IMG/VR virus record: IMGVR_UViG_2667528045_000005
DNA length: 30,049 nt
Source of the DNA: a virus
Lineage: Duplodnaviria > Heunggongvirae > Uroviricota > Caudoviricetes
Reading direction: 5' to 3' (one strand)
Shown here: piece after piece, positions 1,666-22,971 of the stretch
Position numbering within the stretch: the stretch's first letter is position 1
Layout of the letters: each line of letters opens with the position of its first letter
The notes under the pieces: generated by a model
The model's database searches: none
Told to the model about the DNA's origin: nothing
What the model saw: the letters and a program-made list of their open reading frames with translations, nothing else
Made by a program: the position numbers and the translations under genes

Positions 1666-4110
1666 TCAATAGTCGTGGGTCATGTTGGCACGCTGGCGGG
1701 CGCGTTTATCGCGCTCAATCTGTTCGAGCGTGTCGCGTAGTTGTCTGTCAAGCTGATGCCCCGGCGCAACACCTCCCGGCAGATTGATGTTGTATTCGCT
1801 TTTGCTCTGGTCAATGTAAGAGCGCCCCGCCGGTGCGGTAACTGGCTGATAAGCCTGATAGCCGCCATATGTGCTGGTTGCCGGGATGTAGGAATTACCC
1901 TGTGTGGCGGCATTGGTTTTGGCGGCGGTCTGGTCGAGGCTGTCCGACTCTTTGTTGATGATGCCGAGCTTTTCGAGAAGCCAGTCGACACCGCTGCGCA
2001 GCTTGTTAAAAACATTGAGCGGAGCCATCAAGGCAGAGGCCAGTGCCTGACCAAATATGACGCCGACACTTTTGCAGCTATCAAGCGTTTCCTGCGTGGC
2101 CTTAATCGGTGCTATCAGGTCTTTAAACCACTGCCAGACGCCGCGCAGTTTCTCGCCGAGACCATCAAAAATGGGAGCCAGTGGAGCGAACATTTCCCCG
2201 ACTGGGGCAAAGGCACTCATGATGCCCTCAATCACTCCCGAGAAAAATGCGCTGATGGGCTCCCAATATTTACGGATGAGTAGCGCCCCCGCCACAATCG
2301 CCGCACCGACGGCCACTATCGGCCAGGTAATCGCACCGAGCGCTGTCGCAATGGCACTACCGACGACAGTAAAGACCGTACCCAGCACGCCAGCAGCGGC
2401 GATAATGGCATTAATCCCCATGACAACCGGCCACGCAACGAGACCAATGCCGCCGATGATACCAATCAGCGCCAGCGCACCACCGGCGATGATGCCGATA
2501 GTTTCCGCTAACTCCTTGTTGTCTTTGATCCAGTCATCAAGCTTTAGCACATACCGTGTTGCTGTCTGAGTTAGCTGACGCAATGAGCTATCTTGCTGGT
2601 CGTAGAGGTCGGTACCGACGGCCTCATAAGCGGATTGAAACTCTTTGAAGTCGCCACCTAAGTTATCCTGCATAATTTTAACAAGCTCTGCGGTTTTTCC
2701 GTCTGAGGCTTTCAGGGTGGAGGTTAGCTGGTCAAGTTTGCCGGTTGAGGCGGCAGTCATGAGCACCGCCGCCGCCGAACTGGCTTCCTCACCGAATATC
2801 GTTTTCATGTATTCGGCTTGTTGACCGGTGCCGAGATTGTTACGCTCAAAACTGGCCTGCATTTCCTTGAGGATGGTAAAAATCGGGCGCGTGTTGCCTT
2901 TACTGTCGGAAGTTTTGACACCCAGCTCCTTAAGCGCATCCCACGCTTTACCGGTCGGAGCCTGCAGGCGGCTTAAAACCGCACGGCTCCCGGTGCCGGC
3001 CATCGAGCCGGTGATTTTGGCGTCATGCAGGGCGCCCACCATTGCGGCAGTTTCTTCAATGCTGACACCGGCATTTTTCGCCACCGGCGCGGCGTATGTC
3101 AGCGCATCGCTCAGCCCGTCGAAATCGGCAGCAGTTTTATTCATCACCGTCGACAGAACGTCGCCAATGTGCGCCACCTTGTCATTGGAAAGCTGAAACG
3201 CAGAGCGCATCCCCATCAGTAATGCGGCGTTTTCTTCCATCGTGCGACGGTTGGCAAGCGCCATATTGAGGGTGACCGGTGTCGTCGCCTGAATGGCTGC
3301 CGCATCGCCGCCCCCTTTGGCGATAATAATCTGCGCACTGGCTGCATCATCAGCAGAAGCGGCTGTATTGTCACCGAGCTGGCGTGCCTGTTTGCGTAGC
3401 GCCTCCATTTCTGGCGACTGCTTATCGACCCCGAGCACGGCCTGCAGCTCGGAATTTTTCTGCGCAAAGTCATAACCGGGCATCAGTAATTTCACCCCGG
3501 CCATCGTTCCCGCTGTCGCGATACCTACCCCGGCAGCCCCTGCAGCGGCCATGTTACCGGCAAGCTCCTTGCCTGATTTATATCGCTCTTTCACCCGGCC
3601 TAATTTCGCCTGCTGCGCACTGACGCGCGCCAGTGCCTCACGCTGGCGGTTAAGCTGCGCCGTCGTTTCGCTGATGGAGGTTTTGAGCCGACGCTCATCG
3701 GCAGAAAGGGTGCGGGTATTAATACCGGCCTGCATCAGTTCGGAGCGCTGGCGCTGTACAGACGTTCTCAGATTGTTGTACTTCGTCTGTAGCTCAGAGG
3801 CAGCACGCTTTGCCGCTTCGAGTGCCTGCGCCTGCGCGCGGGTCGGACTGGTGGAGTTTTTAAACTGCACGGCCAGTTCACCGGCTTCGCGTTTCGCTTT
3901 CTCAAGCGCCTGACTGGTCACGGCCAGTTGCGCACTGGCCTTACGAAAGCCGTCGATTTTTGACGCCTGACCATTCAGGTCACGCAGCCCTTTTTGTGTT
4001 TCGCGAATATCGCCCGACAGGGTTTTACTCGCGGTCTGGATGGATTTAAGCGGTCGGGTCGCCTGGTCGACCGCTTTCAGCAAAACCTCAAGTCTCAGGT
4101 TATTACTCAT
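1666..4110 (-). CDS. T: tail tape measure protein gpT
   Basis: 814 aa, Ala/Gly-rich with coiled-coil N-terminus and hydrophobic central glycine-zipper segment; follows E/E' as in P2. Confidence 0.9.
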   Translation of the reverse strand: MSNNLRLEVLLKAVDQATRPLKSIQTASKTLSGDIRETQKGLRDLNGQASKIDGFRKASAQLAVTSQALEKAKREAGELAVQFKNSTSPTRAQAQALEAAKRAASELQTKYNNLRTSVQRQRSELMQAGINTRTLSADERRLKTSISETTAQLNRQREALARVSAQQAKLGRVKERYKSGKELAGNMAAAGAAGVGIATAGTMAGVKLLMPGYDFAQKNSELQAVLGVDKQSPEMEALRKQARQLGDNTAASADDAASAQIIIAKGGGDAAAIQATTPVTLNMALANRRTMEENAALLMGMRSAFQLSNDKVAHIGDVLSTVMNKTAADFDGLSDALTYAAPVAKNAGVSIEETAAMVGALHDAKITGSMAGTGSRAVLSRLQAPTGKAWDALKELGVKTSDSKGNTRPIFTILKEMQASFERNNLGTGQQAEYMKTIFGEEASSAAAVLMTAASTGKLDQLTSTLKASDGKTAELVKIMQDNLGGDFKEFQSAYEAVGTDLYDQQDSSLRQLTQTATRYVLKLDDWIKDNKELAETIGIIAGGALALIGIIGGIGLVAWPVVMGINAIIAAAGVLGTVFTVVGSAIATALGAITWPIVAVGAAIVAGALLIRKYWEPISAFFSGVIEGIMSAFAPVGEMFAPLAPIFDGLGEKLRGVWQWFKDLIAPIKATQETLDSCKSVGVIFGQALASALMAPLNVFNKLRSGVDWLLEKLGIINKESDSLDQTAAKTNAATQGNSYIPATSTYGGYQAYQPVTAPAGRSYIDQSKSEYNINLPGGVAPGHQLDRQLRDTLEQIERDKRARQRANMTHDY

Positions 4111-4590
4111 TGTGGTGTCCGCTACGCTGCAGCGCCTTTTCGCGCCATGTGATGAGCTCGGTCAGGCTCAGGGAATAGAGCTCTGATAGCGGCCAGTGGA
4201 ATATCACCGCGATATCCGCCATCAGGTCATCGGTCGACAGGTCGGGCGGGAAATCTACTCCGCCGAAGCCGGTGACAAAAAACCAATCACCTTAGCGGCC
4301 AGCGACAGCATATCGGGCAGGTTCATTGCGGTAAGCTCCTGCGCCGTAAGCGCGGGGTAGGTCATGCGTGGCAATACCTTAATCAGCGCATCGACTTCGG
4401 ACTGCGCCACCGCTGCCAGACTGACACCGCGCAGGGTACCGGCGTTCGGCTCAATCAGTGTGACTTTATCAATCGTCTGACCGGCGCGCTTAATCGGCTT
4501 GTCGAGGGTCACGACGTTCGGGTTTACGGTGTCAATTTCATTGCCAGCCATATCAACAAATTCAGCGGTTTTACGTGGTGCTTTTGCCAT
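4103..4590 (-). CDS. E': gpE+E' programmed -1 frameshift product
   Basis: Slippery TTTTTTG (minus strand, plus coords 4276-4282); -1 frame continues ...HWPLSELYSLSLTELITWREKALQRSGHHNE and stops at TAA 4103-4105, overlapping the T start codon, as in P2. Confidence 0.7.
4255..4590 (-). CDS. E: tail assembly chaperone gpE
   Basis: 111 aa ending GFLSPASAE; the GGT TTT TTG codons near the 3' end form the T6G slippery site. Confidence 0.85.
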   Translation of the reverse strand: MAKAPRKTAEFVDMAGNEIDTVNPNVVTLDKPIKRAGQTIDKVTLIEPNAGTLRGVSLAAVAQSEVDALIKVLPRMTYPALTAQELTAMNLPDMLSLAAKVIGFLSPASAE

Positions 4591-4653
4591 GATGTTTTTC
4601 TCTGCTCTGAATGGGGATTAATAACCGGCCAGCAGTGCTGACCGGTCAGGGAA

Positions 4654-5172
4654 TTACAGCCCGATTGCGCGGCGGTGCTGTTCCAGACGGTCGACGCCGT
4701 TCACCTTCTCAACCATGTTGACGGTATCGATTTCGATGACGTCGCTACCATCAATCGTGAGGCGGTAATAGGTGCATACGGTCGACAGTTTGGTCGAGGT
4801 GTTTTCACCCTGCTTATTCTCGCCGCCGTCGATTTCTTTATGACGGCCACGCATGACCACCTCGACCGCCACGATTTCGCCAGTGTCGTCACGTTGGTAA
4901 GAGCCAGCAAAACGCAACGGCACAGCGTCAGCACCCGGCGCGGCGTACTGCGCCCACAGCGCCACATCAGGCAGGCCACCGACAGACCATTCGACGGTGA
5001 GCGCATCATCGTCGAGACCAAGGTCAATCGCCGCCGCGCCATTCATGCCGCCGCCGCGATAGTTTTCGAGCTTGCGGGTCAGCTTCGGCAGCGTCACGGA
5101 TTCAACAACGCCCATGTAGCTAAGGCCGTCATTGAACATGTTCAGATATTTAAGTTTGCGGGGTAGTGCCAT
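4654..5172 (-). CDS. FII: tail tube protein gpFII
   Basis: 172 aa; MALPRKLKYLNMFNDG... matches P2 FII. Confidence 0.9.
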   Translation of the reverse strand: MALPRKLKYLNMFNDGLSYMGVVESVTLPKLTRKLENYRGGGMNGAAAIDLGLDDDALTVEWSVGGLPDVALWAQYAAPGADAVPLRFAGSYQRDDTGEIVAVEVVMRGRHKEIDGGENKQGENTSTKLSTVCTYYRLTIDGSDVIEIDTVNMVEKVNGVDRLEQHRRAIGL

Positions 5173-5187
5173 GTTGTTTCAGGCTCC

Positions 5188-6393
5188 TTAGCTGTTGACC
5201 GATTCGGCCAGATTTACCAGATATTTATCGGTGATACGCTGGCGCAGGGTCAGGCTTTCCAGTGGTGGAACCGGTGTATAGTCGTAGTCGATATACAGTT
5301 TCCCTGCCTTGAGGGTTTCCTTATCGTTCGATTCCTCGTCAAACCAGCATTCACCGTCCACGATGTAGCCGTTTGATTTCAGCTCGCGGAATTTGGCGTT
5401 AATGCCGTCGACAATGTCACGGATAAGTGATGCGGTGATGGGCTTATCGACCGCCCACATGTGCGCCTCGGCCATCGTGTCGGCCAGCACCTGCGCGGTG
5501 CGGGTGTAGTTCTCAAACAGGAAAAGCGGGTCATCAGAGCAGGTGCGGTTACCCCAAAAGCGGAAGCCATCCTTACGCACCAGTGTTGTGAGCCCGGCCT
5601 CGTTGAGCAGATCAGCATCGGTGCCGGATGCCTGCAAATCCCAAAACACTGACGCACTGATGCCGGTAACACCCTGCACGCCGATGTTAGACAGGGTTTT
5701 GTGCCAGCCGACGGTCTGGTCGATATAGGCACGCAGGCCGAGTGCGCGCGCAGTTGCGTATGCCGGTGCGGTGGCGTTTGTGGTGGTATCCCATGCAAGG
5801 AAATCAGGCCAGATGACCATCAGCTCGCGCTGGCTGAAATTCTCGCGATAGGCCATCGCCTCGGAAATGGTTTTACAACCCCATGCGCTGATATAGCCAA
5901 AGGCGCGCAGGCTGATACAGACCGAAGCAAGTGCGACTGCGACCTCTTTGGTATCGAGACCCGGCACGCCGAGAATGCGCGGCTTAACGCCGGTGACTGC
6001 TTCGGCAGTCAACAGCGCCTTGATGCCGGTATATTTACCGCTCTCATCCGTGCCGCCGATGATATTGGAAATGGTCTGCGCTTCGGCGTCTTCTCCGGTA
6101 CCTTCGGCAACACGCACGACAACTGTGACAGGTTTTGACTGGTCGGCGATGGCCTGCAGGGACGCGGCCAGCGTGCCTTTTTTACCGGCTTTCGCAATGG
6201 CGCTTTGCACATTGGTAATCAGTACCGGCTCGTTGAGGGGAAAGGTTGCCGCATCCGCATCGCTGGCTGTACAGACCATGCCGACGATTGCGGTTGCAAC
6301 AGTGGAAATGACGCGGGTGCCGTCGTTAATCTCAAGCACCTGCACGCCGTGGTGAAAATCACTCATCCGGTTAACTCCGTGGTTAGTGGGCAA
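5188..6393 (-). CDS. FI: contractile tail sheath protein gpFI
   Basis: 401 aa; position and sequence typical of P2 FI sheath. Confidence 0.9.
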   Translation of the reverse strand: MPTNHGVNRMSDFHHGVQVLEINDGTRVISTVATAIVGMVCTASDADAATFPLNEPVLITNVQSAIAKAGKKGTLAASLQAIADQSKPVTVVVRVAEGTGEDAEAQTISNIIGGTDESGKYTGIKALLTAEAVTGVKPRILGVPGLDTKEVAVALASVCISLRAFGYISAWGCKTISEAMAYRENFSQRELMVIWPDFLAWDTTTNATAPAYATARALGLRAYIDQTVGWHKTLSNIGVQGVTGISASVFWDLQASGTDADLLNEAGLTTLVRKDGFRFWGNRTCSDDPLFLFENYTRTAQVLADTMAEAHMWAVDKPITASLIRDIVDGINAKFRELKSNGYIVDGECWFDEESNDKETLKAGKLYIDYDYTPVPPLESLTLRQRITDKYLVNLAESVNS

Positions 6394-6464
6394 GTGTTAT
6401 TGTCCTGGCTGGTCTGTTGAGGGGCTATTTGTCAGTGTTGGGTGATGTCTGACACATTGAGACA

Positions 6465-6707
6465 TCAGCAACGGATGCGGGAAATTTTTTGTATAGCGTT
6501 GAGATACCCGAGGCGATCCAGTTTCCAGACCACAAGCGTATCGCCCTCTGACAAGGTTCTGAGTAACCTCTTTAGCCCCGGCCAGTCTGATGTTTTGCCG
6601 CTGATTTTATCTTCGAAAATCAGCTCGCATCCTGCGCACTCCAGTTCATTTCGCTGTAATGCGGTGTTCTGGTCATTTGTTGATACACGTACATAACCGA
6701 TAAACAT
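6465..6707 (-). pseudogene. truncated Hin/Gin/Pin-family serine DNA invertase (N-terminal ~67 aa only)
   Basis: MFIGYVRVSTNDQNTALQRNELECAGCELIFEDKISGK...GDTLVVWKLDRLG aligns with the Hin N-terminus (catalytic Ser in RVST present); homology stops after DRLG and the ORF ends 13 codons later; only ~70 bp remain before the FI start. Confidence 0.75.
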
Positions 6708-6761
6708 GAGAAATAACCCGGTAAAAAGTCGGGATCATGCCAACTGAACGGAATATCTGCA

Positions 6762-6787
6762 TTTTCTAAAAGGTTGGTTTGGGAGAA
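6762..6787. other. hix/gix-like 26-bp inversion crossover site (outer site)
   Basis: TTTTCTAAAAGG TT GGTTTGGGAGAA; its inner half is the exact inverted copy of the inner half of the site at 8660-8685; in frame with the start of the alternative fibre ORF. Confidence 0.6.
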
Positions 6788-7126
6788 GCGGCTAAAAGGA
6801 ATGTAGGGACAGGGGCGAATCAGATACCTGATATGGGTAGCTTCACGCTTTCTGTTTCAGGTACTGGATATCAAAAATTACCATCAGGTTTTATTCTTCA
6901 GTGGGGCTCAATCGGCGCACCAGGCATTGCACAGGATGTAGTAACCCATTTCCCGATTGCATTTCCAAACAGATGTCTGCGTGTTTTGGTCTCACAAGAC
7001 TACACACCAGATAGCGGGGCTGTTGGTTATATTGCCTGTGCAGGTTTTAGTCCCGACCCGGTTAAATTTATATCCAGAGCCAGTACTCCTGGCCTCGGCG
7101 CTTCATTTTTAGCGTTAGGCTGTTAA
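6779..7126 (+). CDS. alternative tail-fibre C-terminal variable segment (Sv'-like), silent in this orientation
   Basis: 115-aa ORF with no ATG (begins TTG inside the crossover site); reading frame continuous with the H constant part after inversion; contains a [11 protein letters not shown]-type fibre-tip sequence. Confidence 0.55.
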
Positions 7127-7147
7127 TTTAGCTATATGGAGTGAAAA

Positions 7148-7588
7148 ATGAATTACATATATTCCGCGACTACAAACTCTTTCTATCCGCTGGAGATGAA
7201 AGAGGATTACACTCAAGCTGACTCATGGCCAGATGATGCTGTTGAAGTTGATGAGCAAGTGTATATTGAGTTTTCCGGATTACCGCCGAAAGGAAAAATC
7301 CGTATCGCTGGAGAAAATGGTTTTCCTGCATGGTCTGAAATTCCACCACCAACACATGAGGAACAGATTGCTGCAGCCGAACTGGAAAAGCAGCAACTGA
7401 TTAATCAGGTCAACGATTATATGAACAGTAAACAATGGCCTGGTAAAGCCGCTATTGGTCGTCTGAAAGATGATGAACTGGCGCAATATAATTTGTGGCT
7501 GGATTATCTGGACGCACTGGAGCTGGTCGATACTTCCGGTGCGCCAGATATTGAATGGCCTACGCCTCCGGCAGTTCAGGCCAGATGA
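7148..7588 (+). CDS. tail fibre assembly protein (alternative, U'-like)
   Basis: 146 aa, Tfa-like C-terminus (LWLDYLDALELVDTSGAPDIEWPTPP); own GGAG RBS; convergent with and overlapping the 3' end of G. Confidence 0.8.
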   Translation: MNYIYSATTNSFYPLEMKEDYTQADSWPDDAVEVDEQVYIEFSGLPPKGKIRIAGENGFPAWSEIPPPTHEEQIAAAELEKQQLINQVNDYMNSKQWPGKAAIGRLKDDELAQYNLWLDYLDALELVDTSGAPDIEWPTPPAVQAR

Positions 7589-8162
7589 CATCCGGCGCGG
7601 TGCTGGTATCTGTTGCCGTCACCGCGTCAATGTAATCCAGCACAGCGTTAAGGCGGGTTGTTTCTGCCTGCGTCAGTTTACGTCCGGCCTGCAATTTCAG
7701 CTGAATCAGACTGATGGAGGCCATTGCAGTATCAATCAGCGACTGGCGCTGTGCTTCTGCTGCATCTACTGCTGCGCCGTGCTGTGCCTCGGTATCCGTC
7801 ACCCATTTCTCACCATCCCATTTATCGTATGGCGTTAACGGGGCGATAGTGGTTGTATTTTCATGGTAATCACCCGGAGCTGTGATTTCTTTTGATTCTC
7901 CTGTTTCAGTGCTATATACCGTTTCACCACGGTGGTCTGGCACATATACCCATGAGTTAAAATCTGCAGAACGGCAGATTGCATAACCAGCTTTATATGA
8001 GTCAGGAGCATCTAAACAGGAGCATGCCGGAATGCCGACACCCACAGCAAGATATTCAGTTGATGTGAAAATATATTCCCGTGTTTCACCATCATAGTTA
8101 TAAACAGTAATATTTCCTGCTTGGGTGGCGATAAATTCGTTATTTAATACGGCGTAATCCAT
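7560..8162 (-). CDS. G: tail fibre assembly protein gpG
   Basis: 200 aa; Tfa-family C-terminus (LDYIDAVTATDTSTAPDVIWPELPEA); immediately downstream of H. Confidence 0.85.
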   Translation of the reverse strand: MDYAVLNNEFIATQAGNITVYNYDGETREYIFTSTEYLAVGVGIPACSCLDAPDSYKAGYAICRSADFNSWVYVPDHRGETVYSTETGESKEITAPGDYHENTTTIAPLTPYDKWDGEKWVTDTEAQHGAAVDAAEAQRQSLIDTAMASISLIQLKLQAGRKLTQAETTRLNAVLDYIDAVTATDTSTAPDVIWPELPEA

Positions 8163-9280
8163 TATGCAGCCCTCACGATATACGCAAATGCCAGGTTCCG
8201 TGGTCTGGTTTCTTTAATTAAAGAGGAGGCATCAGGTGAACTCACTGATTCAGCACCATTTCTTCCACCAGTGGTATAAGTAAAAACTCTTTCACTGTTA
8301 GACCAGTAATCCACACCAACTGTTTTTGCTGATGAAAAAATGGTTTCATCAGATATAACCTGTTCTATTCCATACGGGATATTAGTAACTGACCCCACTT
8401 TTGTAGGTATTCCATGATTATGAGAAATTACTGCATGCTCTTGATTCGTTAATAAAGTACGACCGCTATCCACTCCACGCCCGTCATCCCAGCCACGAAT
8501 AAACTCACCACGTAAATCAGGCAATTTATTTGTCGGATAAGCCTTTGCCAGTTCCGGGTATTCTTCAGCAGAAAAAGCGGCACCGTTGCATTTCAGCCAG
8601 CCTGTTGGCGGAGTGGCGGAAGGCCACGGAACAGGCACGCCAACGGGTAATGCCGAACCTTCTCCCAAACCAAGGTTTTTAAGAACGTCGCCGGCCAGTC
8701 CCGCGTCAACCATTTCTTTCAGAGCATTAGCGATTAACGGGTACTGCTTGTGTGGATTGGCGGCCTCAACATGTTTTTTCATCAGGTCATCAGCATATCC
8801 TTTCACCTCGATAATCTTGTCGTCGACATACTGGCGCGTTGCCAGCACGACTGCCGGGTCGATTTTCAGGGTGATTGCCGATGTGCTCGACACAACCAGA
8901 ATCATGCGAATGGTCTGCGTGCGACCGCTTCCCTCCTGCAGTTGTGGCTTGTAGGTCTCCGGACAGTTCGCCACGGCAATCAGAATACCATCATCGTCAT
9001 AGAGACCAATCTCGCGGATCCAGAAACCACCTTCATTCTCGGGAATAATCTGTTCCGCGATAATCTGACTGGTATTGGCCGGGTCAACGGTCAGCAGGTT
9101 CAGCGGCGCGATGCGTTTCTGGTTAATGAGCTTCGTCTGCGCCGGGTCAGGGGTCGGCAACGTACCATTCGCATCACCGACGGCCATCTGCGTCAGGTTG
9201 AGTTTGGTACCGAGTGCCGCCGCGTTCGCCAGCCGCGCCGCGCCCTGATTGGTCAGAATGGCAAAATATTTTGCGGTCAT
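8162..9280 (-). CDS. H: tail fibre protein gpH (constant N-terminus + current variable C-terminus)
   Basis: 372 aa; N-terminus aligns with P2 gpH (MAVGD...AVANCPETYKP...SGR.QT.RM..VVSS); a hix-like site lies within the coding sequence at residues ~199-207. Confidence 0.85.
   Translation of the reverse strand: MTAKYFAILTNQGAARLANAAALGTKLNLTQMAVGDANGTLPTPDPAQTKLINQKRIAPLNLLTVDPANTSQIIAEQIIPENEGGFWIREIGLYDDDGILIAVANCPETYKPQLQEGSGRTQTIRMILVVSSTSAITLKIDPAVVLATRQYVDDKIIEVKGYADDLMKKHVEAANPHKQYPLIANALKEMVDAGLAGDVLKNLGLGEGSALPVGVPVPWPSATPPTGWLKCNGAAFSAEEYPELAKAYPTNKLPDLRGEFIRGWDDGRGVDSGRTLLTNQEHAVISHNHGIPTKVGSVTNIPYGIEQVISDETIFSSAKTVGVDYWSNSERVFTYTTGGRNGAESVSSPDASSLIKETRPRNLAFAYIVRAA
8660..8685. other. 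hix/gix-like 26-bp inversion crossover site (inside H)
   Basis: TTCTCCCAAACC AA GGTTTTTAAGAA; about 21/26 identical to Salmonella hixL as I remember it; encodes VLKNLGLGE of H. Confidence 0.6.
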
Positions 9281-9885
9281 GCGTTCACTCTCAGGTTATC
9301 AATCAAATGGATGGCCGAGGCCGGGTAATATTCACCGCCGACGACAATCTCCTCGGGGGTGTAGGGGTAAACAGTCAGCGCGTCGCCGTGATAGCATCCC
9401 GCGCCGACATACAGTTCGCCGGTCGAGCTCAGACTGATAGCCAGCCCGGTCAGGTGGCGACTTGCCGGTTTGGCGTCTTCAATCAGGCGCTCAAGCTCCT
9501 GATACATTTCGTCAGTGATGCCGCTGTCGAGGACGCCAACAACGAGGCGGAATGTGCCTGGCTCCTCGTCGAGTTGCCACCACTCGCGCACCTCAATCAG
9601 AAAGCCGAGCGGCTCGACGACCCGACGCAATGCGCTGATGGTGCCTTTGTGCTGATGGACGAAAAACGAGGACGCGCAGACGTTGCGCTTTGTCGCCTCC
9701 GGCCATTTCTCATCCCACCTGTCGACCGACAGCGCCCACGCCAGATACGGCAGCAGCTTTACCGGGCAGGTGCGCCAGTTCCACAGGGTGCGCAGCGGTA
9801 CCGGCACGCGCTGAATCTCAGAGAACGCAGCGGCGGCGGCAACCTCCAGCGGCGACGAGCCAACGGGTAATAGCCGGTCACTCAT
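9277..9885 (-). CDS. I: baseplate assembly protein gpI
   Basis: 202 aa; position and sequence consistent with P2 gpI. Confidence 0.85.
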   Translation of the reverse strand: MSDRLLPVGSSPLEVAAAAAFSEIQRVPVPLRTLWNWRTCPVKLLPYLAWALSVDRWDEKWPEATKRNVCASSFFVHQHKGTISALRRVVEPLGFLIEVREWWQLDEEPGTFRLVVGVLDSGITDEMYQELERLIEDAKPASRHLTGLAISLSSTGELYVGAGCYHGDALTVYPYTPEEIVVGGEYYPASAIHLIDNLRVNA

Positions 9886-10786
9886 CCGAGCCCCCGATAG
9901 TTATCTGGTACTCAGTACAATTCGACGCCTGCGACTTACTCAGCACAATGTCGGCCTGCGGTGATGCCAGTTCGACACGCTGCACCCCCTCAACATGCAG
10001 CGCCGCGTAAATGGCCGACAGACGGATATCACGCCCGAGGCGGTGCTGCGCGCTGATGTAACTCTGCAGCTTTTGTTCTGATGCCTGCCTGATGGGCTCA
10101 GACTCGGGGCCGGGGTAAACGTAGAGCGTCGCGTCAATTTGGTACGGCACAATCTCGGCTGACTGGACGGTCACCCGGTCAGCCACCGGGCGCACATCTT
10201 CGGCATTCAGCGCTTTATCAACAATCGCCAGTAAATCAGGGCTGGCGGTGCCGTTGCCCTCACGTGATAGCACAGTAATCGTCACGCAGGCTGGCGACGG
10301 ACTGGCGACCGAAACGTCAGCGACCCGCCCGTCGGCACTGCGACCATGATACTCATATGCTCCGACCGGCCCCGCCACACTCAAGCCCTCAAACGCTTGT
10401 TGCGTGCGCAGTCGCAGGTCAGTATCTGATTCCATAACGGCAGGCGTCGGCGGGATGGTAGTGTCATCCGCCGGGGTGATGGTCAGGCGCTCGGTATTGT
10501 TGTTCCCGGCCACGACGTCGAGGTCGTTACCGGCAGAATAGGCCAGCGTTACCGCCTGCGCGGCTTCGTTCACCCGCTGACGCCAGATAATTTCACGGTA
10601 GGCGTTTTCCTGCAGCAGCTTAACAATCGGCTCTGACTCAAGTGCGAGCGTCCGGGCAATGGCCTCCTGCTGGTCTTCGGGATAGAGCGAAATCAGTATC
10701 GCTTTGCGTTCCGCAAGGATGGTTTCATAGTCCAGTTCCTCAACCACATCGGGAACGGGTAACTGACTCAGGTCAACGTTTGCCAT
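9878..10786 (-). CDS. J: baseplate protein gpJ
   Basis: 302 aa; P2 gpJ-like (gp6-like baseplate wedge). Confidence 0.88.
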   Translation of the reverse strand: MANVDLSQLPVPDVVEELDYETILAERKAILISLYPEDQQEAIARTLALESEPIVKLLQENAYREIIWRQRVNEAAQAVTLAYSAGNDLDVVAGNNNTERLTITPADDTTIPPTPAVMESDTDLRLRTQQAFEGLSVAGPVGAYEYHGRSADGRVADVSVASPSPACVTITVLSREGNGTASPDLLAIVDKALNAEDVRPVADRVTVQSAEIVPYQIDATLYVYPGPESEPIRQASEQKLQSYISAQHRLGRDIRLSAIYAALHVEGVQRVELASPQADIVLSKSQASNCTEYQITIGGSDE

Positions 10787-10792
10787 AGTGAT

Positions 10793-11140
10793 TTAACTCA
10801 GTGAAACAGTGGTTGAAACTGACGCACCGGTATCGGTACGCATCCCGGTAATATCGACATACATTTCGCCAGCGTCGCCGGTCTCAAAGCTGATGGCGGT
10901 AAGCCTGATGCGCGGCTCCCACTTCTGGATAGCCGAATAGCACGCCACCATAATTTGCAGCCTGAGCGCCGGGTTTTGCGGCATATCAATCAGCGCCGAC
11001 AGAAGCGAGCCATATTCTCGACGCATTACCCGCGAACCGACCGGCGTCAGCAGAATATCGCGCATGCTCTGGCTGATATGCTCGGTATCGCTGATGCCGA
11101 GGCCGGTATTTCGGTTCATACCCTGATAGCGCGCCGTCAT
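10793..11140 (-). CDS. W: baseplate protein gpW (gp25-like)
   Basis: 115 aa; matches P2 gpW length and sequence pattern. Confidence 0.88.
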   Translation of the reverse strand: MTARYQGMNRNTGLGISDTEHISQSMRDILLTPVGSRVMRREYGSLLSALIDMPQNPALRLQIMVACYSAIQKWEPRIRLTAISFETGDAGEMYVDITGMRTDTGASVSTTVSLS

Positions 11141-11772
11141 AACGGTGTCCCCGTTTGCCCGCCGCTGTCCCCCGGGTGTTTATGGGTGTGGAGTACCTTG
11201 CCATTAGACGACAGTGACCCGCCGGTATGTTCGATATTGCCGCTCATCTTGCCGCCTTTTTGTACCTCAAGCGTCGCTGTCGTCAGCTTATTGGTGCAAA
11301 TTACCTCCGGGGTGTCGAGGGTGATACTGGTCGAGGCTTTCACCAGTACCAGCGGTACGGTTGCAGTGATGGACTCCGATGCCGTCACGTCGGCAGTTTT
11401 GATACCGCTGACCGTCAGCGCGCCGGTCTCGGGCTCGTACTCAATGACCGCACCATCAGGGAAAACCACATGCCACGCATCCGCCGAGGCAGAGGGGGCG
11501 GGGTTATCGTCGGAGAAAATTCCAGGCAGCACGAAAGCGGTATCAAGCTCGCCACCGATTGCCAGCAGCAGAACCTGCTCACCGACCGAGGGAGCCCACC
11601 ACGTCCGCGAACGACCGGCGCGGGTGGTCAGCCAGTTCAGCCATGTAGTCTGGATCCCGCCGCTTTGTACGCGGCACAGCCCCTGCACGGTATCAACCTC
11701 AGTCACCACACCTGAGCGGATGAGGTTGCGAATCGCACGCGCGAGCTCCTGTATCGTGTATAACGTATTCAT
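11137..11772 (-). CDS. V: baseplate spike protein gpV
   Basis: 211 aa; P2 gpV-like. Confidence 0.88.
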   Translation of the reverse strand: MNTLYTIQELARAIRNLIRSGVVTEVDTVQGLCRVQSGGIQTTWLNWLTTRAGRSRTWWAPSVGEQVLLLAIGGELDTAFVLPGIFSDDNPAPSASADAWHVVFPDGAVIEYEPETGALTVSGIKTADVTASESITATVPLVLVKASTSITLDTPEVICTNKLTTATLEVQKGGKMSGNIEHTGGSLSSNGKVLHTHKHPGDSGGQTGTPL

Positions 11773-11840
11773 AGTGCAAGGATGCCTCTGGTCTGGAGTC
11801 GCGCCAATTCGCGCGGCTCCGGTGGTGGTTCACACAATAT

Positions 11841-12290
11841 TTATTTGCCGAGATGCCTGATAATGACGTCTTCAATCATCTGCTCATCGTCGCGGGTGAA
11901 ACCGAGTAACGGGCGCGCCTCGTACTGCACATCCCGGCTGTTGCGGTTTGGTCTGTCTTTGAGCCCGTACTGATGCACCCGCGCCATGCGCTGCACCTTG
12001 CCGGTAAACTCCACCACCGCCGCACTGTCGCTGCCTTTGGCTTTCATAAAGCGACTGGTGCGCAGTTTGGCGAACATTTCATGTTTAATCCGACCTTTCT
12101 TGCTCCTCACCGGCTGGCGCTTTCGTGCCGCATACGGGGTGCCGTCTGGTGCCTGCTGGCGCTTGATACGCTGTTGCTGACTGGTACGCAGCCTTTTCGC
12201 AATCTCAGCCGCCATTTGCCGACGCGCCGCCGGTGACAGGCTGGCAATCAGACCGGCAAGGCGTTCCTGCAGTGCGGTTAACTCACTCAT
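11841..12290 (-). CDS. S: tail completion protein gpS
   Basis: 149 aa; P2 gpS-like. Confidence 0.85.
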   Translation of the reverse strand: MSELTALQERLAGLIASLSPAARRQMAAEIAKRLRTSQQQRIKRQQAPDGTPYAARKRQPVRSKKGRIKHEMFAKLRTSRFMKAKGSDSAAVVEFTGKVQRMARVHQYGLKDRPNRNSRDVQYEARPLLGFTRDDEQMIEDVIIRHLGK

Positions 12291-12759
12291 CCCACTTACT
12301 CACCAGTTCGCCATTAACGTACAGCTCGACCGGGCGCGTCACCGGCTCAGGCAGCGGCGGCTCAGGGGCATAGCTGACATGCAGCGCGCCGTCGACCTCT
12401 TTGACGAGCGTGCGCTCGGTGAGCCTCAGGCTGATACTGATATCGAGCGAATCGTCGTTATTGATATCAATAATCCAGGTGAATCCTTTTTCCCGCCCGT
12501 CGTCGGTGGTCATAATGTCCGGCTGATGTTCACGCAGCCACGCCTGCACCGGCACGAATATCAAATCAAGGTCACCGGTGAAGTCGGTCACCACCACGTT
12601 AAGCACGTACACCTTTTCAAACGACAGCGAGCTCGCCAGTCTGGAATCGGTATGGCCGTTGTCGGCAAAAAGGCGCAGCATATCGGGGTTGTTTCGGAGC
12701 TGCGGCACGGCGTTAATCAGCGCTTTGCGCAGGCTTTTGTGCTTCTGCATCGAGTTCAT
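12283..12759 (-). CDS. R: tail completion protein gpR
   Basis: 158 aa; P2 gpR-like. Confidence 0.85.
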   Translation of the reverse strand: MNSMQKHKSLRKALINAVPQLRNNPDMLRLFADNGHTDSRLASSLSFEKVYVLNVVVTDFTGDLDLIFVPVQAWLREHQPDIMTTDDGREKGFTWIIDINNDDSLDISISLRLTERTLVKEVDGALHVSYAPEPPLPEPVTRPVELYVNGELVSKWDE

Positions 12760-13003
12760 CCTGACAGTGTTTGACGGTTTTGACCTGTAGCGCGCAGGCG
12801 ATCAGCGCACCCTCAAGGCGGCGGATATCTGCGCTCAGGTCACCATTGGTTTTCGGGTCACTTCCCGGCATCGGGCAAAGGCTCACTCTCGGGCATCCGT
12901 TGACCACAATCACCGGCGCTGGCGCAGGCGGTGCGGATGTGCAACCGACGCACAACATCAGGTAAAGCAGCGTTATACCAGCGGCGAAAGGCTTCATTTT
13001 CAT
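12713..13003 (-). CDS. lysC: LysC outer-membrane spanin (Rz1-like lipoprotein)
   Basis: 96 aa; signal peptide plus lipobox (LCVGC), Pro-rich mature part; begins inside lysB in another frame and runs into R. Confidence 0.72.
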   Translation of the reverse strand: MKMKPFAAGITLLYLMLCVGCTSAPPAPAPVIVVNGCPRVSLCPMPGSDPKTNGDLSADIRRLEGALIACALQVKTVKHCQDELDAEAQKPAQSAD

Positions 13004-13271
13004 TAAGTAACCTCGTTATTGATTGCTCGCGGCGGCTGGCTTCCTCGCTGGCCTTTGCGAGCTGTTCACGCAGTGCCACCTGCGCAGATTCATTACGTCT
13101 GGCAAGCTGACCGGCAACACTGAGCTGATTTTTCAGCATGCCAATCGTCGTCTTTTGTTCGCTCGCGACGCGGTTTGCTGTCTCAAAGGAGCGGGATAAA
13201 TTGCCGTTCTCATGGCGCAACCACAACATCCCGAGCACAGTCAGCACCAGAAGTGTAATCAGGATTTTCAT
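12858..13271 (-). CDS. lysB: LysB inner-membrane spanin (Rz-like)
   Basis: N-terminal TM helix (MKILITLLVLTVLGMLWL) then coiled coil; start trimmed to the ATG that overlaps the K stop (ATGA) rather than the 146-aa ORF-track start. Confidence 0.78.
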   Translation of the reverse strand: MKILITLLVLTVLGMLWLRHENGNLSRSFETANRVASEQKTTIGMLKNQLSVAGQLARRNESAQVALREQLAKASEEASRREQSITRLLNENEAFRRWYNAALPDVVRRLHIRTACASAGDCGQRMPESEPLPDAGK

Positions 13272-13765
13272 TCCATTACCCCGCCAGCGGTGCGCCATAC
13301 GGTGACCAGTTTGTCGAGGCTGTGCTCACGTTGGCCGTAACCGGCACCCGGTAACGACGCCCAGATATTGCGGCACCGTGAAATTGCCCGCTCAATACGC
13401 CCCGCCTTAATATCCTCAATGGCACCGCGTTCGCGGATTAACTGAATCGCAAGTTTGTCCTGCGACAACGGGCTGAAATCAGGCAATGCGAGTTGTTTCT
13501 GATAATGCGGCCAGTAGAGATAAAGCTGTTGGTAACGCCCTGATGCCGTGGATTTTTCGCCGCGTCGATTAAACACTTTCGCTGGTCTGCCATGTGCGAA
13601 AGGGTGGTCGGTGTAGTCGGTGAAAATTTCCGGCTTGCCATCAAGGCCAGTGACAATGACGTCGTAACCACGATTTTTCGTCAGCGGATGCGTCGCCGTC
13701 CCTTCGGAATAGGCCAGCATGTCCAGAAATGCGGCGATATTCTGGTGAGTATTAATGACCGGCAT
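13268..13765 (-). CDS. K: endolysin gpK (lysozyme)
   Basis: Starts MPVINTHQNIAAFLDMLAYSEGT as P2 gpK; 165 aa; the 242-aa ORF in the track is an upstream over-extension. Confidence 0.9.
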   Translation of the reverse strand: MPVINTHQNIAAFLDMLAYSEGTATHPLTKNRGYDVIVTGLDGKPEIFTDYTDHPFAHGRPAKVFNRRGEKSTASGRYQQLYLYWPHYQKQLALPDFSPLSQDKLAIQLIRERGAIEDIKAGRIERAISRCRNIWASLPGAGYGQREHSLDKLVTVWRTAGGVME

Positions 13766-14048
13766 CGCTATCCCCCTGTTGTGACTTAAAGCGGCGCTGA
13801 ATGGCGATTTCCACCACCTGATAACCTGCAATGCCGAGCATGGATCCAATCCCGCAAACGGCAGGCAGTGACATATCTGGAAACTGCACCAGAACAACAC
13901 CGGCGACCATTGAAACAAAACCGCCGAGCAGCATGCGGCCGATAAACAGGCGCGGGGTAATGGGCTCACCACCCGCCAGCACTTTTCCGACAACAATCAT
14001 CACGCCAATCACAAACAGTGACAGGACGCCTTTTTCCCCTTCTGTCAT
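13752..14048 (-). CDS. Y: holin gpY
   Basis: 98 aa with multiple TM segments and charged C-terminus; directly upstream of K. Confidence 0.85.
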   Translation of the reverse strand: MTEGEKGVLSLFVIGVMIVVGKVLAGGEPITPRLFIGRMLLGGFVSMVAGVVLVQFPDMSLPAVCGIGSMLGIAGYQVVEIAIQRRFKSQQGDSDAGH

Positions 14049-14051
14049 GGT

Positions 14052-14255
14052 TTACTCCCAAAGGTTGATAGTTTCTGTTACGGGTGACGATGCCACGTCG
14101 GGCAGGTCAATCGCCGTGCCATGCGGCAGAATGACGCCCAGCTCAGACAGACCGGGATTAGCCTGCAGCACCGTCTCGACCACGCCCTCAGTGCGCCCGT
14201 AATACCGGGCGCAAAGCGCGTCGAGGGTGTCGCCCTGCATCGCGTAGACTTTCAT
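14052..14255 (-). CDS. X: tail protein gpX (LysM-like)
   Basis: Start trimmed to MKVYAMQGDTLDALCARYYGRTEGVVETVL..., matching the 67-aa P2 gpX; ATGA overlap with the L stop. Confidence 0.8.
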   Translation of the reverse strand: MKVYAMQGDTLDALCARYYGRTEGVVETVLQANPGLSELGVILPHGTAIDLPDVASSPVTETINLWE

Positions 14256-14764
14256 CAGAGCTGACCCACGATGCAGCGCGGCTTGTCCTGCAGACGCGAG
14301 ACCGACCAGCGCATATCCCGCCACAGGTCATCAATGGTGGTTTCGACGCTGTCGGCTTTTTTGTCACCCTTGCCCGTGGCCTCAACCCCGCGATAACGCT
14401 CATACAGGGTGGCGGTCGCCATCGCCGTCACGGCGCTGAGGTAGTGGAAAACGCGCACATTCTCGCCGTCGATTTCCTCGGAGTCAGGCACGTCGGCCAG
14501 TGTCTTAAACCCTGCGGCAATCTGGCGCAGCCGGTAGTCGTAAAGCTCCGCATTGGTTTCCGCCATGCCGGTCTTGATGGCGTTGCGCAGGCGCGCATCG
14601 GAAACCGTCTGCTCAAGGCGCATCAGTTCGCGCACCCGCTTCGGATCCACATCAGGGAAAAAGAACGTGTTTTTAATCACTGCGTCGCCCGTCTCCGGTG
14701 CGGGAATCACCACGCCCGGTACGTCCTGCGGTTCGTCGGGCTGATTCAGTATTACTGTCGTCAT
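14255..14764 (-). CDS. L: head completion/stabilisation protein gpL
   Basis: 169 aa; P2 gpL-like. Confidence 0.88.
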   Translation of the reverse strand: MTTVILNQPDEPQDVPGVVIPAPETGDAVIKNTFFFPDVDPKRVRELMRLEQTVSDARLRNAIKTGMAETNAELYDYRLRQIAAGFKTLADVPDSEEIDGENVRVFHYLSAVTAMATATLYERYRGVEATGKGDKKADSVETTIDDLWRDMRWSVSRLQDKPRCIVGQL

Positions 14765-14857
14765 GACAACCTCATTAGGTTGGGCGGTGGACGCCGGTCG
14801 CCGTCAGGGTCAAAACCCGCTTTGACCGGCGTGCCGCCCGGCTCGGGGAGCGTTCAG

Positions 14858-15607
14858 TTAACCGGCGGTTTTTACCGCCTTTGGTGGACGCCCGCGCTTT
14901 GCCGCCGGTTTGTTGGCAGGTTTGCGCGTGCGCGGTTTAGTCGTTTTACGGGGCGCGGCCTCTGGCTTTGGCTTCAATGCCCGTTCCAGTCGCTCAATCT
15001 CCTTGCGCACACCGGCATTGCGGTCGAGCTGCATCGCGCGCTGAAACTGCGCCAGCGCCTCTGCATTCATACCGGCATCACGCAGGGTCAGGCCTGTCAC
15101 CTTATGCAGACGGGCGCGCACCATATCGGGAACGTCAGCGCCGTCGGTCAGGTCGATAGTGGTCTGCAGCCAGGAAAGGTCGACAGACTCACCGGCATCG
15201 CGCAGGCGCTGCGCAGCAAGCGCCACTTCCTCAACCAGCATGTAAGGTGTTGTGCGGCGGTGGTCAGAGGTGAGGCCGTATTTCAGCGCGTACGGGGCAA
15301 TTTCCAGCGCGCCAGCGATATCACCGGCATCGAGACGCCACAGCATGACGGTCATGACAATGTCATCCTGCGCACCACGGCCATCAGCCAGCACACCGGC
15401 GACCCACGGCGCATAGAACGGCAGCAGCTCGCGCTTTTTCTCGGCTTTACGTTCGTTTGAACGGATGTTTTTTAACGTGCGGCGGTCATCGGCCAGCTTA
15501 ACCAGCATCTGCTCATAGGCGGTTGCATGGCGCAGCGGGGCTTGCTCCCGCTGCGCGGCTTGAGAGGCCGAGACCCGCATCATGTGACGCTGTGCGGGGC
15601 TCGTCAT
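14858..15607 (-). CDS. M: terminase small (endonuclease) subunit gpM
   Basis: 249 aa with basic Lys/Pro-rich C-terminal tail; P2 gpM-like. Confidence 0.88.
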   Translation of the reverse strand: MTSPAQRHMMRVSASQAAQREQAPLRHATAYEQMLVKLADDRRTLKNIRSNERKAEKKRELLPFYAPWVAGVLADGRGAQDDIVMTVMLWRLDAGDIAGALEIAPYALKYGLTSDHRRTTPYMLVEEVALAAQRLRDAGESVDLSWLQTTIDLTDGADVPDMVRARLHKVTGLTLRDAGMNAEALAQFQRAMQLDRNAGVRKEIERLERALKPKPEAAPRKTTKPRTRKPANKPAAKRGRPPKAVKTAG

Positions 15608-15610
15608 GGT

Positions 15611-16678
15611 TTAGGCTCCGCTTTCCGGTGCTGCAGGTGCGGTGAAATCGCCCAGGGTGATGTTTTCCAGCAGGCACCCGGCGGCATACGCCTCGACCAC
15701 ATAGTCGATATTCATCGACTCGTAGTTTTCAACGCGGTCTTTTTTCGGGTTTTCATCAATGCTGCGGCGGTGACTCTCATCCATGAAATAGATAGATAGG
15801 TTTTCCAGCGTGGTCACTAACACGGCATTCGCCGGGAAGTACGGCACACGCACAGCAGGCAGGTTGCCGATTCGCTTCTGGCTGATGATGATATCTGCCG
15901 CAAGCGCCTCGCTGTTTTCCTGCGGCTTGTTCACCAGCGGGAAATATTTGTCGGCCAGCAGCTTACGGCCAACGATGGCAACGAGTTTCGGGTCATCCTG
16001 ATAAACCTCGTCAATCAGGTTGTTGGTGGCGTCCATCACCAGCGCGTCGAGGTTCTCATAGTCGCCGTTTCGACCTACACGAATCACTGCTGAAACGACC
16101 TTACCGTCAGCGTCGGTGATGTTGCTCATCACGCGCGTCGGGGCTTCATTGCGGTATTTCTGCAGCCAGCCGACGGCCACATCCTGCAGCATCGGATTTT
16201 TGGTGCGGTCAGAGGTGGCGGCGCGGGTGGTACCGTTAAAACCGGCCATGATGAAATCCAGTGCCTGACGTTTGACAATGGCGTCGCGGATGCGGCGCTG
16301 GAAGTCCTGAAAACGCGCCCACAGGTCGAGGGTTTTATATTTCAGATGGAAGTCAAAATTAATTTGGTCGCACTCGTACTTGTTGGACTCAAGCGCGGTG
16401 AAGTCGGCGGTCTTACGCTCATCATCGCCCGAGGTGTCGGTCGTGCTGGCGATAGTACCGGTCACACCGACGCCGATTTTCTCACCCTTCATTTCTGCGA
16501 CCGGCAGAATATTAATCGTCTGCAGAAACGCGGATGACTCCTGCACTTTGTTCATCAGTGTTTGCGTGACGGACGGCTCGACGGTGAATTTTTTACTGAC
16601 GTCATCAGTGCTGATGCCGTTCAGCTCAGCGACGCGGGTCAGATAGGCATTGAACTTAAAACGGGTATCCGGGCGCAT
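15611..16678 (-). CDS. N: major capsid protein gpN
   Basis: 355 aa; P2 gpN-like. Confidence 0.9.
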   Translation of the reverse strand: MRPDTRFKFNAYLTRVAELNGISTDDVSKKFTVEPSVTQTLMNKVQESSAFLQTINILPVAEMKGEKIGVGVTGTIASTTDTSGDDERKTADFTALESNKYECDQINFDFHLKYKTLDLWARFQDFQRRIRDAIVKRQALDFIMAGFNGTTRAATSDRTKNPMLQDVAVGWLQKYRNEAPTRVMSNITDADGKVVSAVIRVGRNGDYENLDALVMDATNNLIDEVYQDDPKLVAIVGRKLLADKYFPLVNKPQENSEALAADIIISQKRIGNLPAVRVPYFPANAVLVTTLENLSIYFMDESHRRSIDENPKKDRVENYESMNIDYVVEAYAAGCLLENITLGDFTAPAAPESGA

Positions 16679-20592: not shown

Positions 20593-20622
20593 CTTAGGCC
20601 GCCACAATCTCTGCGCTCATTA

Positions 20623-20651
20623 TTGAAGATGCAATCTGCGAAAGCTATAGT
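20623..20651 (+). promoter_or_regulatory. sigma70-like promoter (TTGAAG - 17 nt - TATAGT) for the 334-aa orphan gene
   Basis: -35 at 20623-20628, 17-nt spacer, -10 at 20646-20651; ATG at 20670. Confidence 0.45.
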
Positions 20652-20669
20652 GCATCGAATATCAAAACA

Positions 20670-21674
20670 ATGGGCGCGGAGATTAATATTTTGGAAACTG
20701 ATTTTAAAATAACCCTCGAAGGTTTCGCTACTGAGCAAGAAGCAAATAATATCGGTAATTTCACACTAGAAGCTATCCGAGCTTTAACAAAAAATCTCAA
20801 TCTTGATATCTCCAAATTAAAATGCGTGATTGTTTCCTATAACTTCAGTGAAGCTCTTCAAAAGGTAACATCCTCTTACCAACACAAATCCCCTAGTTCA
20901 TTTACCAATAGCAAACAGGGCGCAGCCGTCGGGCAGTTAGTAACAAAAATTGGCAATGATGGGCTATGTGAAGAATATACCCTTGTGCTATCGATTGATT
21001 TTTTTGTTGAGCTTTTCAATGATGGTAGCTTCTTAAAACTGAAAGAAGAAGGATACCTCGCAGTCATCCATCGCATTCACCATGAATTAGTGCACGTACA
21101 TGAAAAAAACTTACTAACATGCTTAGCCCAAAACTTTACAGTCAACGAGTATGGTAGCGCGCTTCTTATCTCAGCCACGCGTGCATGGTCTGAATATCTC
21201 GCTAATTACATGTCTTCGGGGTCTGCCCCTCAAGAAACTATCGATTTATTTTTAGAGAATCTTGACACTGTTGTAAATGAAGTATCTGACGAGATTGAAA
21301 AACTCATCTGGGGTTATAAGTACGGTAATATTTCTCTGAATGACATGTATCTTGAAGTAAAAAAACGTATCAGGCTAATCATCAACTCTTATGCTTATGC
21401 GATGGGTTATGTCCATTCTCTAAACATCAATATTAAAGAATACGATCCAAAGCTATCCCTTACACTATCCAACTCAAAGATAAGATATCAATTATCAGAA
21501 TTAGGCATTGCTTTTCAGAATCTTTATGGGAAGTTTAATGACCAGCACATTACAGGTTTTGGTGATTTTCGGGAGATAACAATAATCATTGATGAAATAT
21601 TCAAGCAGTTTGGGCTTGTTTTAGAGTGTCCCGATTGGTCTGGCGACGGTGAACTCTACATACATGTAAATTAG
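20670..21674 (+). CDS. hypothetical protein, AT-rich orphan gene; HRIHHELVHVHE segment (HExxH-like or HEPN-like)
   Basis: 334-aa intact ORF; markedly lower GC than flanking phage genes; inserted between portal Q and cos. Confidence 0.6.
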   Translation: MGAEINILETDFKITLEGFATEQEANNIGNFTLEAIRALTKNLNLDISKLKCVIVSYNFSEALQKVTSSYQHKSPSSFTNSKQGAAVGQLVTKIGNDGLCEEYTLVLSIDFFVELFNDGSFLKLKEEGYLAVIHRIHHELVHVHEKNLLTCLAQNFTVNEYGSALLISATRAWSEYLANYMSSGSAPQETIDLFLENLDTVVNEVSDEIEKLIWGYKYGNISLNDMYLEVKKRIRLIINSYAYAMGYVHSLNINIKEYDPKLSLTLSNSKIRYQLSELGIAFQNLYGKFNDQHITGFGDFREITIIIDEIFKQFGLVLECPDWSGDGELYIHVN

Positions 21675-21893
21675 TTTAATCATAGTAGAAACATAATTAG
21701 CAGTTTGAATCCTGCCACTCCTATAAAGCCGCTGCTCCTGGTGGCTTTTCCATGCACACCACCATCACGCATCAGATGCGTCTCACGCGCACGAACACAC
21801 TCGACCACCAACGAACCAGCAGCGACCACGACAGCGCCATCACGACGCGCTCAGAGGATAATTTTTATTATTATGCATCACTGCTGGCGCGCA

Positions 21894-21912
21894 ATGCTTT
21901 CCCCGCCACGCC
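21894..21912. other. cos cohesive-end sequence (186-type)
   Basis: ATGCTTTCCCCGCCACGCC is the reverse complement of GGCGTGGCGGGGAAAGCAT, the phage 186 cohesive end as I remember it (2 mismatches to P2). Confidence 0.7.
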
Positions 21913-22072
21913 TGCCCGCTTTATGGGGCGGTTTTAATGCAGTTGCATGACAACTCTGGATCCGCGCTAGCTCTGGCGGCGCACGGACAGAACGGGCAAG
22001 ACTGACGCATGCAAAACCATGCACCTAATGCATGCACGACTAAAAAACGGGAAATTCGCGGAAAAATGGCAT

Positions 22073-22106
22073 AAAAAAACCGGCATTCAGGGTGCCGGTT
22101 TTAGTC
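22073..22106. terminator. bidirectional intrinsic terminator
   Basis: A7 - CCGGCA TTCAGGG TGCCGG - TTTT; on the minus strand the hairpin is followed by seven Ts. Confidence 0.6.
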
Positions 22107-22120
22107 TGGTTTTGTCGCGA

Positions 22121-22222: not shown

Positions 22223-22238
22223 ATTTATATAGTTCCTC

Positions 22239-22564: not shown

Positions 22565-22566
22565 AT

Positions 22567-22969: not shown

Positions 22970-22971
22970 TG

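Follow-up and report, generated by a model that had tools for sequence, protein, structure and literature searches.

Whether an invertible tail-fibre segment can still be switched when the invertase gene beside it has been truncated is the question raised by this locus. The window, meaning the whole stretch of 30,049 nucleotides that was analysed (IMG/VR record IMGVR_UViG_2667528045_000005), corresponds to a P2/186-like (Peduoviridae) Escherichia coli prophage, in which all 30 kb are prophage DNA and the integrase is placed at the window's end. The element appears to be a complete prophage of this type, not a remnant. On the minus strand, it carries the tape-measure gene (1666-4110), the tube gene FII (4654-5172), and the tail sheath gene FI, identified by Pfam (5188-6366, with its ATG at 6366), and the order beyond FI is the invertase remnant, the invertible fibre segment, the fibre gene H, and then the baseplate, head, and early genes. 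The early region (window 20600-30049, 9.45 kb) was found with 100% identity in a prophage integrated between rplS and yfiB in E. coli MB06232 (NZ_CM129885.1, locus L018). In that prophage, everything from a tail assembly gene through the capsid gene is gone (L018 18219-19020, about window 4400-16000); the loss extends over FI/FII, the remnant of the invertase, and the genes for the fibres and baseplate.

The invertase remnant and its deletion

The open reading frame (ORF) of 80 aa found at 6465-6707 on the minus strand is real. Its residues 3-67 were matched by Pfam Resolvase (E 6.8e-20), in which only profile positions 2-76 of 145 were covered, and its residues 1-68 by Gin (PDB 4m6f; E 2.4e-29), with a similarity that stops after VWKLDRLG, while the blastn alignments with full-length E. 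coli invertase genes ended at window 6507/6508, which is the G67 codon. An earlier note, made from the sequence alone, had stated that the ORF follows Hin/Gin through VWKLDRLG and then diverges, and had proposed alignment with full-length genes to map the breakpoint. These three comparisons agree with the former, and the alignment indeed located the breakpoint at 6507-6508, where G67 is joined to G171.

The retained codons 1-67 (M1 to G67; 6507..6707, minus strand), delimited by Pfam and the Gin alignment, include the Ser9 nucleophile motif VRVST, so that the serine signature Y-x-R-V-S-T is present as GYVRVST at residues 4-10. The remainder of the ORF (6465..6506, minus strand) is an out-of-frame tail, YLNAIQKISRIRC followed by a stop codon, which corresponds to a misreading of the gene's own 3′ end. 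In the other frame, the minus strand at 6425-6508 translates as GISTLYKKFPASVADVSMCQTSPNTDK and a stop, colinear with GLSTLYKKFPSSATKNKLCHPLTNRDK and the stop at the C-terminus of the 197-aa invertase of pro483. This stretch (6425..6508) represents the native last 27 codons and stop (G171-K197 in pro483 numbering), with the native stop codon kept at 6425-6427. It was observed by blastn and by reading of the sequence that homology to the N-terminal part extends to 6508 and homology to the C-terminal part starts from 6508, which defines a minus-strand junction with a 2-bp GG overlap (6507..6508) common to the G67 and G171 codons. The whole pseudogene remnant (6425..6707, minus strand) comprises the 283 bp remaining of a gene of ~594 bp, and the deletion relative to pro483 is of ~311 bp (594 minus 283), which took out approximately codons 68-170 plus 2 nt and is out of frame.

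Since the DNA past the breakpoint corresponds to the invertase 3′ end in another frame, the lesion is an internal deletion that left the 3′ end of the gene and the FI-proximal DNA intact. The earlier note had put the deletion beside the region upstream of FI and had counted only ~70 bp ahead of that gene, and neither point could be maintained. The last 27 codons, the stop, and a native spacer of 58 bp between the invertase stop and the FI start (6367..6424, minus strand; 59 bp in pro483) were kept, and the distance from the stop of the 80-aa ORF to the annotated FI ATG is 98 bp, the figure of ~70 bp having come from an upstream TTG. No exact TGT-N12-ACA motif of the late promoter PF was found upstream of any late operon in the window, where only TGT-N13-ACA motifs occurred, 88-98 bp upstream of FI, and the sigma-70 promoter and terminator scans were empty. 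Any late promoter situated close upstream of FI would have been untouched by the deletion. The deletion did not arise via a secondary crossover site, given that its junction (GATCGCCTCGG joined to GTATCTCAACG) is unlike the 26-bp site.

The deleted codons specified the remainder of the catalytic domain, helix E, which serves in oligomerisation, and the greater part of the helix-turn-helix that binds DNA. The catalytic domain of the remnant is thus incomplete, lacking the Arg that follows LDRLG; helix E is absent, as is the C-terminal helix-turn-helix DNA-binding domain, the last 27 codons remaining out of frame. Moreover, residues F2, E21, and W42 are rare in the family, since L, A, and R are found at these positions in 103, 118, and 114 of the 119 homologues, respectively, and W42 replaces the conserved Arg of the S-D-R-P-G-L motif. 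Judged by its sequence, the remnant does not belong among the functional Gin/Hin/Cin/Pin invertases (small serine recombinases), and it can have no catalytic activity. This is in line with its former description as a truncated Gin/Hin/Pin-type invertase, with an incomplete catalytic domain and, as mapped here, ~311 bp deleted.

The invertible fibre segment and the enzymes that may act on it

Two 26-bp crossover sites were found, inverted relative to each other and with 15 identical bp in common. The invertase-proximal site, TTTTCTAAAAGG TT GGTTTGGGAGAA, is located at 6762..6787 on the plus strand, and the other, TTCTTAAAAACC TT GGTTTGGGAGAA, at 8660..8685 on the minus strand, inside the fibre gene H. 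They enclose an invertible segment of 1,896 bp (6776..8671) when counted from one inner half-site to the other. In the current orientation, H (8162..9280, minus strand) encodes 372 aa, composed of a constant N-terminal region of 207 aa and a Collar-type C-terminus, and the expressed cassette includes a tail-fibre assembly chaperone gene (7560..8162, minus strand, Pfam). The silent cassette, on the plus strand, comprises an alternative fibre C-terminus (Gp53-like_C, 6779..7126) and a second tail-fibre assembly chaperone gene (7148..7588), both recognised by Pfam. The chaperone genes at 7148-7588 and 7560-8162 are convergent, with a 29-bp overlap of their 3′ ends (7560-7588) that is also present in related loci. 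Flipping the segment in silico generated an intact 319-aa H′ that has the 207 N-terminal residues in common with the 372-aa H, and a natural locus whose flanks are 100% identical to the window (L012) encodes a 319-aa H of the same architecture as H′. With inverted 26-bp sites, alternative tips with their own chaperones, and both orientations found in nature, the segment is one of the G/C/P type.

The earlier note had considered the switch probably locked. Two clonal isolates from one hospital, CH423 and CH425, with chromosomes of 4,740,904 and 4,740,899 bp, bear directly on this point, both carrying the deleted allele. Their flanks are 100% identical across 4,488 + 2,163 bp, and the 1,863-bp segment is 100% identical in reverse complement, meaning that it lies in opposite orientations, with the exchange point inside the common 15-bp core. 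The flip was observed as a single event pair, CH423 versus CH425, and with the same dead allele in both orientations the switch is not locked in this lineage, contrary to what had been anticipated. The remnant of CH423 and CH425 encodes only 44 aa; therefore, its product cannot have caused the flip, which was most likely carried out by an invertase from another prophage. The lack of an intact invertase beside an invertible fibre segment should not be taken for a locked switch.

The deleted-invertase backbone (loci L005-L014, L001, and L015/L016) was also found to bear invertible segments of at least six different kinds, 1,540-1,937 bp long, whose similarity to window 6776-8671 breaks exactly at the crossover sites. 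In L011, the flanks are 99.8-99.98% identical to the window and the segment is wholly different, and in L012 the segment is inverted and half-replaced between the 100% identical flanks. The breaks at the crossover sites and the number of segments on one backbone suggest a frequent exchange of cassettes between co-resident prophages. A further variant, in E. coli TW10598 (CP035846, L014 1-2460), represents a large rearrangement or deletion ending at the fibre-gene crossover site, in which a Collar-type fibre fragment beside the deleted invertase abuts terminase and portal genes in place of the baseplate genes and the N-terminal part of H.

Cross-action within this family of invertases is established, since PinQ, encoded by prophage Qin, acts outside its own prophage by inverting the segment of e14 (PMC12529663), and an e14 function complements Mu gin, the latter as given in the reference list of the same paper (van de Putte et al. 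1984). A helper was searched for by adding the central, deleted part of the K-12 pinE gene, in opposite orientation, to the query with the allele region, and by counting the matching places. At the megablast level, CH423, CH425, and CH458 presented one place with the allele region alone and two with the pinE centre, and in the sensitive mode these genomes showed two loci homologous to the pinE central region. These place counts, from which alone the locus is deduced, indicate a putative pinE-like locus elsewhere on the chromosome of CH423, CH425, and CH458. Together with the flip, this locus favours, for this lineage, the proviso that accompanied the notion of a locked switch, namely that a related invertase may act in trans. 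In strain 5283, which also has the deleted allele, no pinE-like locus is present on the chromosome; its plasmid NZ_CP103764.1 (~97 kb) harbours an invertase homologue with 76.8% identity over the 5′ part, which could act as a helper from the plasmid, perhaps a phage-plasmid similar in size to P1.

Inversion by such enzymes involves a Fis-dependent enhancer that is required in cis and contains two Fis sites ~47-48 bp apart, ~100 bp from one crossover site. The hin enhancer spans 65 bp, with a Fis site at each end, and is located ~100 bp away from hixL, within the part of the gene that codes for the N-terminus (PMC3798978, PMC2724282). The region homologous to these 65 bp corresponds in the window to codons 8-28 (6624..6686, minus strand) and lies wholly within the retained 201 bp, in agreement with the earlier note, in which the retained 5′ part was thought possibly to hold the enhancer. 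The proximal 15-mer GTATCAACAAATGAC, at 6672-6686, is identical in gin and pinE, and ~95 bp separate its centre from that of the crossover site. Between the window and pinE, synonymous third positions were conserved at 14 of 18 in codons 8-28 versus 12 of 33 in codons 29-67, and a higher conservation in codons 8-28 was also observed for most pairs among the window, pinE, gin, pro483, and L004. This conservation fits the presence of an embedded DNA element, the enhancer. Regarding the candidate Fis sites, the distal one has a G+C-rich centre, and the G-N13-C 15-mers are spaced by 45 or 49 bp, not by 47-48 bp. Position and homology speak for a retained enhancer, and the flip in CH423/CH425 does so indirectly.

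The explanation considered quite probable as a whole is that the locus contains a Gin/Pin-type invertase gene killed by a single old deletion of ~311 bp, that the parts acting in cis were spared, and that the segment can be flipped by the enzyme of another prophage. The sequence shows that one out-of-frame deletion inactivated the gene and spared both 26-bp crossover sites, the 5′ 201 bp with the position of the enhancer, the gene's 3′ end, and the DNA immediately before FI. The phage is therefore unable to flip its own segment, yet the segment would remain a good substrate for the invertase of another prophage, for example PinE of e14, which would bind both crossover sites and be activated by Fis at the retained enhancer. 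The inversion of the 1.9-kb segment would then exchange the fibre tip between the Collar type and the gp53 type, each with its own chaperone, and in a host lacking a helper the fibre would stay fixed. The enzyme behind the flip in CH423/CH425 and its use of the enhancer are inferred from the evidence given above.

It is possible, though doubtful, that the boundaries of the deletion are not accidental, the 5′ remnant having been selected as a cis element and the switching having been outsourced to the Pin-type invertases of the host's other prophages. In that case, the invertase-less lineage would have survived because the deletion spared the enhancer (the first ~85 bp) and the FI-proximal 3′ DNA, and host-range switching of the phage would hang on the prophage content of the lysogen.

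The switch could also be locked in the window's own host, which would have no compatible invertase, so that only the Collar-type fibre would be expressed and the gp53-type cassette would be silent. The invertase of the window is certainly dead, and all eight complete genomes of the 4-bp-insertion sublineage, in which no pinE-like locus was found at the megablast level, present one orientation, an arrangement that could reflect dependence on a helper and equally plain clonality. However, the segment of this same allele flipped between CH423 and CH425, and in the distant mode homologues of the invertase 5′ region occurred in 3,545 of the 5,426 complete E. coli genomes, and matches in 4,799 of them when the pinE central part was added. 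A locked switch in the window's host is, therefore, regarded as unlikely.

Likewise, the inversion seen in CH423/CH425 might have resulted from RecA-dependent homologous recombination between short inverted repeats, with no serine invertase involved, an idea favoured by the 15 identical bp that the repeats have in common and by the fact that the helper enzyme rests on place counts. RecA recombination is inefficient at 15-21 bp, and the repeats, of 15-21 bp, are far under the length at which it is efficient. In addition, the exchange maps within a canonical 26-bp site whose core is identical to that of the e14 Pin sites, and a putative pinE-like locus is present, which makes this route very improbable.

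Spread and decay of the deleted allele

The identical junction was found in 35 of the 5,426 complete E. coli genomes, and the same deletion in the GenBank phage record ON470592. An exact-pattern scan for the 3′ remnant revealed the deletion in all six IMG/VR contigs having this 3′ end, and the same scan of the GTDB species representatives returned nothing. In a contig collection, 276 blocks contain contigs with exactly this 80-aa product. No full-length parent with this 3′ end was found among the complete E. coli genomes or in IMG/VR; in the complete E. coli genomes, the DNA identity of full-length genes to the 5′ part does not exceed 90%, and this 3′ end occurs in none of them. The closest relative of the 5′ part at the DNA level, 30EVA2 (90%), was discarded as the parent, being frameshifted itself and having a different 3′ end. 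A protein search with the 80-aa ORF likewise returned, as relatives, only short or truncated proteins of 65-139 aa and no full-length parent.

Many further invertases truncated independently were present among the matches of this search. One of them, a 102-aa E. coli protein (P0005), follows the invertase N-terminus to RSMRHLVV and then continues with VLDYIDAVTATDTSTAPDVIWPELPEA, the sequence that ends the 200-aa fibre chaperone encoded at window 7560-8162, and represents a separate, independent rearrangement that destroyed an invertase.

The ORF has decayed further on the same deletion backbone. In CH423 and CH425, a 1-bp deletion reduced it to 44 aa, and the locus is labelled by PGAP as 'frameshifted; incomplete; missing C-terminus', whereas in the 613R3 type a 4-bp duplication generated an unrelated ORF of 104 aa. 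The phage vB_EcoM-613R3 was considered as proof that a phage with this allele is viable and was set aside: the titles and abstracts of the papers mentioning the record, a preprint on phages in genome sequences of clinical isolates and a comparative-genomics paper, give no evidence of induction.

The 80-aa product could in principle be a functional small protein, for instance a dominant-negative partner that dampens helper-driven inversion, given that the window preserves the promoter-proximal region together with the start codon and codons 1-67, and that the identical product is widespread. Nevertheless, sublineages with the same DNA backbone encode 44 aa or an unrelated 104 aa, W42 stands where Arg is nearly invariant, helix E, needed for dimerisation, has been lost, and the CH isolates with only 44 aa still flipped, so that such a function is hardly credible. 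The notion of an intact gene that only looks truncated through an error of sequencing or assembly, for which no supporting evidence was found, can be dismissed, as 311 bp are missing and not one base, and the junction is present in 35 independent complete genomes, six viral contigs, and contigs of the 276 collection blocks.

The recovery of an intact frame by correcting a single sequencing error, which the earlier note had named as the outcome that would contradict it, likewise fails with 311 bp absent and a junction that recurs across genomes. The remnant is an old fixed pseudogene, neither a sequencing error nor a new small protein, and for annotation purposes the 80-aa 'recombinase family protein' of RefSeq is a pseudogene remnant.

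Comparison with known inversion systems

The crossover sites resemble those of the Pin/P segment of the cryptic prophage e14 in E. coli K-12, in which the inner half-site with the central dinucleotide, TT GGTTTGGGAGAA, is identical (PMC12529663). Both elements present the same order, that is, the invertase, a silent tip and chaperone, and then a chaperone and the expressed fibre, and the 5′ part of the invertase gene has 83% DNA identity over codons 8-28. The e14 segment is also flipped by the enzyme of another prophage, PinQ (PMC12529663). On the other hand, e14 encodes an intact 184-aa PinE, whereas ~311 bp of the window's gene are deleted; the outer half-sites of e14 are TTTTCATAAACG and CTCTCGAAAACC and those of the window TTTTCTAAAAGG and TTCTTAAAAACC; and e14 is a remnant, unlike the window's element, which looks complete.

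The layout of the locus is found in the P2-like phages pro483 (KR073661) and 'P2' of O157:H43 T22 (KC618326), in which the invertase lies between the fibre genes H/G and FI. The invertase tail, the FI spacer (59 versus 58 bp), and the crossover core are likewise the same. Unlike the window, pro483 has a full-length gene, encoding 197 aa, and its DNA identity to the window's 5′ part is only ~78%; therefore, it is not the direct parent. In KC618326 (L003), the annotated invertase is shorter (495 bp), and the crossover site beside it (3786-3811) has the outer half TTCTCGCATACC, of the type found inside the fibre gene. Further site-like DNA, which includes CCCGTTTATGAAAA, was observed in the alignment between this crossover site and the invertase.

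Similarity to the Gin/G segment of Mu includes the match of residues 1-67 (E 2e-29), the alternative fibre tips with chaperones, and the location of an enhancer, putative in the window, at the 5′ end of the gene for the invertase. A defective Mu invertase was also rescued in trans by the enzyme of a resident prophage, as described in work from 1984 listed among the references of PMC12529663. The Mu sites differ (TTATCCAAAACC TC GGTTTACAGGAA), and the gin mutants were made in the laboratory, whereas the defect described here is a natural deletion fixed in a phage lineage.

The rescue of a defective invertase in trans has been known since the 1980s, and the locus would be an ordinary natural example of it. 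If the helper-dependent explanation is correct, the locus gives a natural and widespread example of a prophage that needs the enzyme of another prophage to vary its receptor binding, which fits the recent evidence of cross-prophage inversion in E. coli, with PinQ acting on e14 (PMC12529663), and calls for no new mechanism. Altogether, the element appears to work like the Mu G, P1 C, and e14 P switches, its sites being nearest to those of e14/Pin and its layout nearest to that of the pro483-type P2-like phages.
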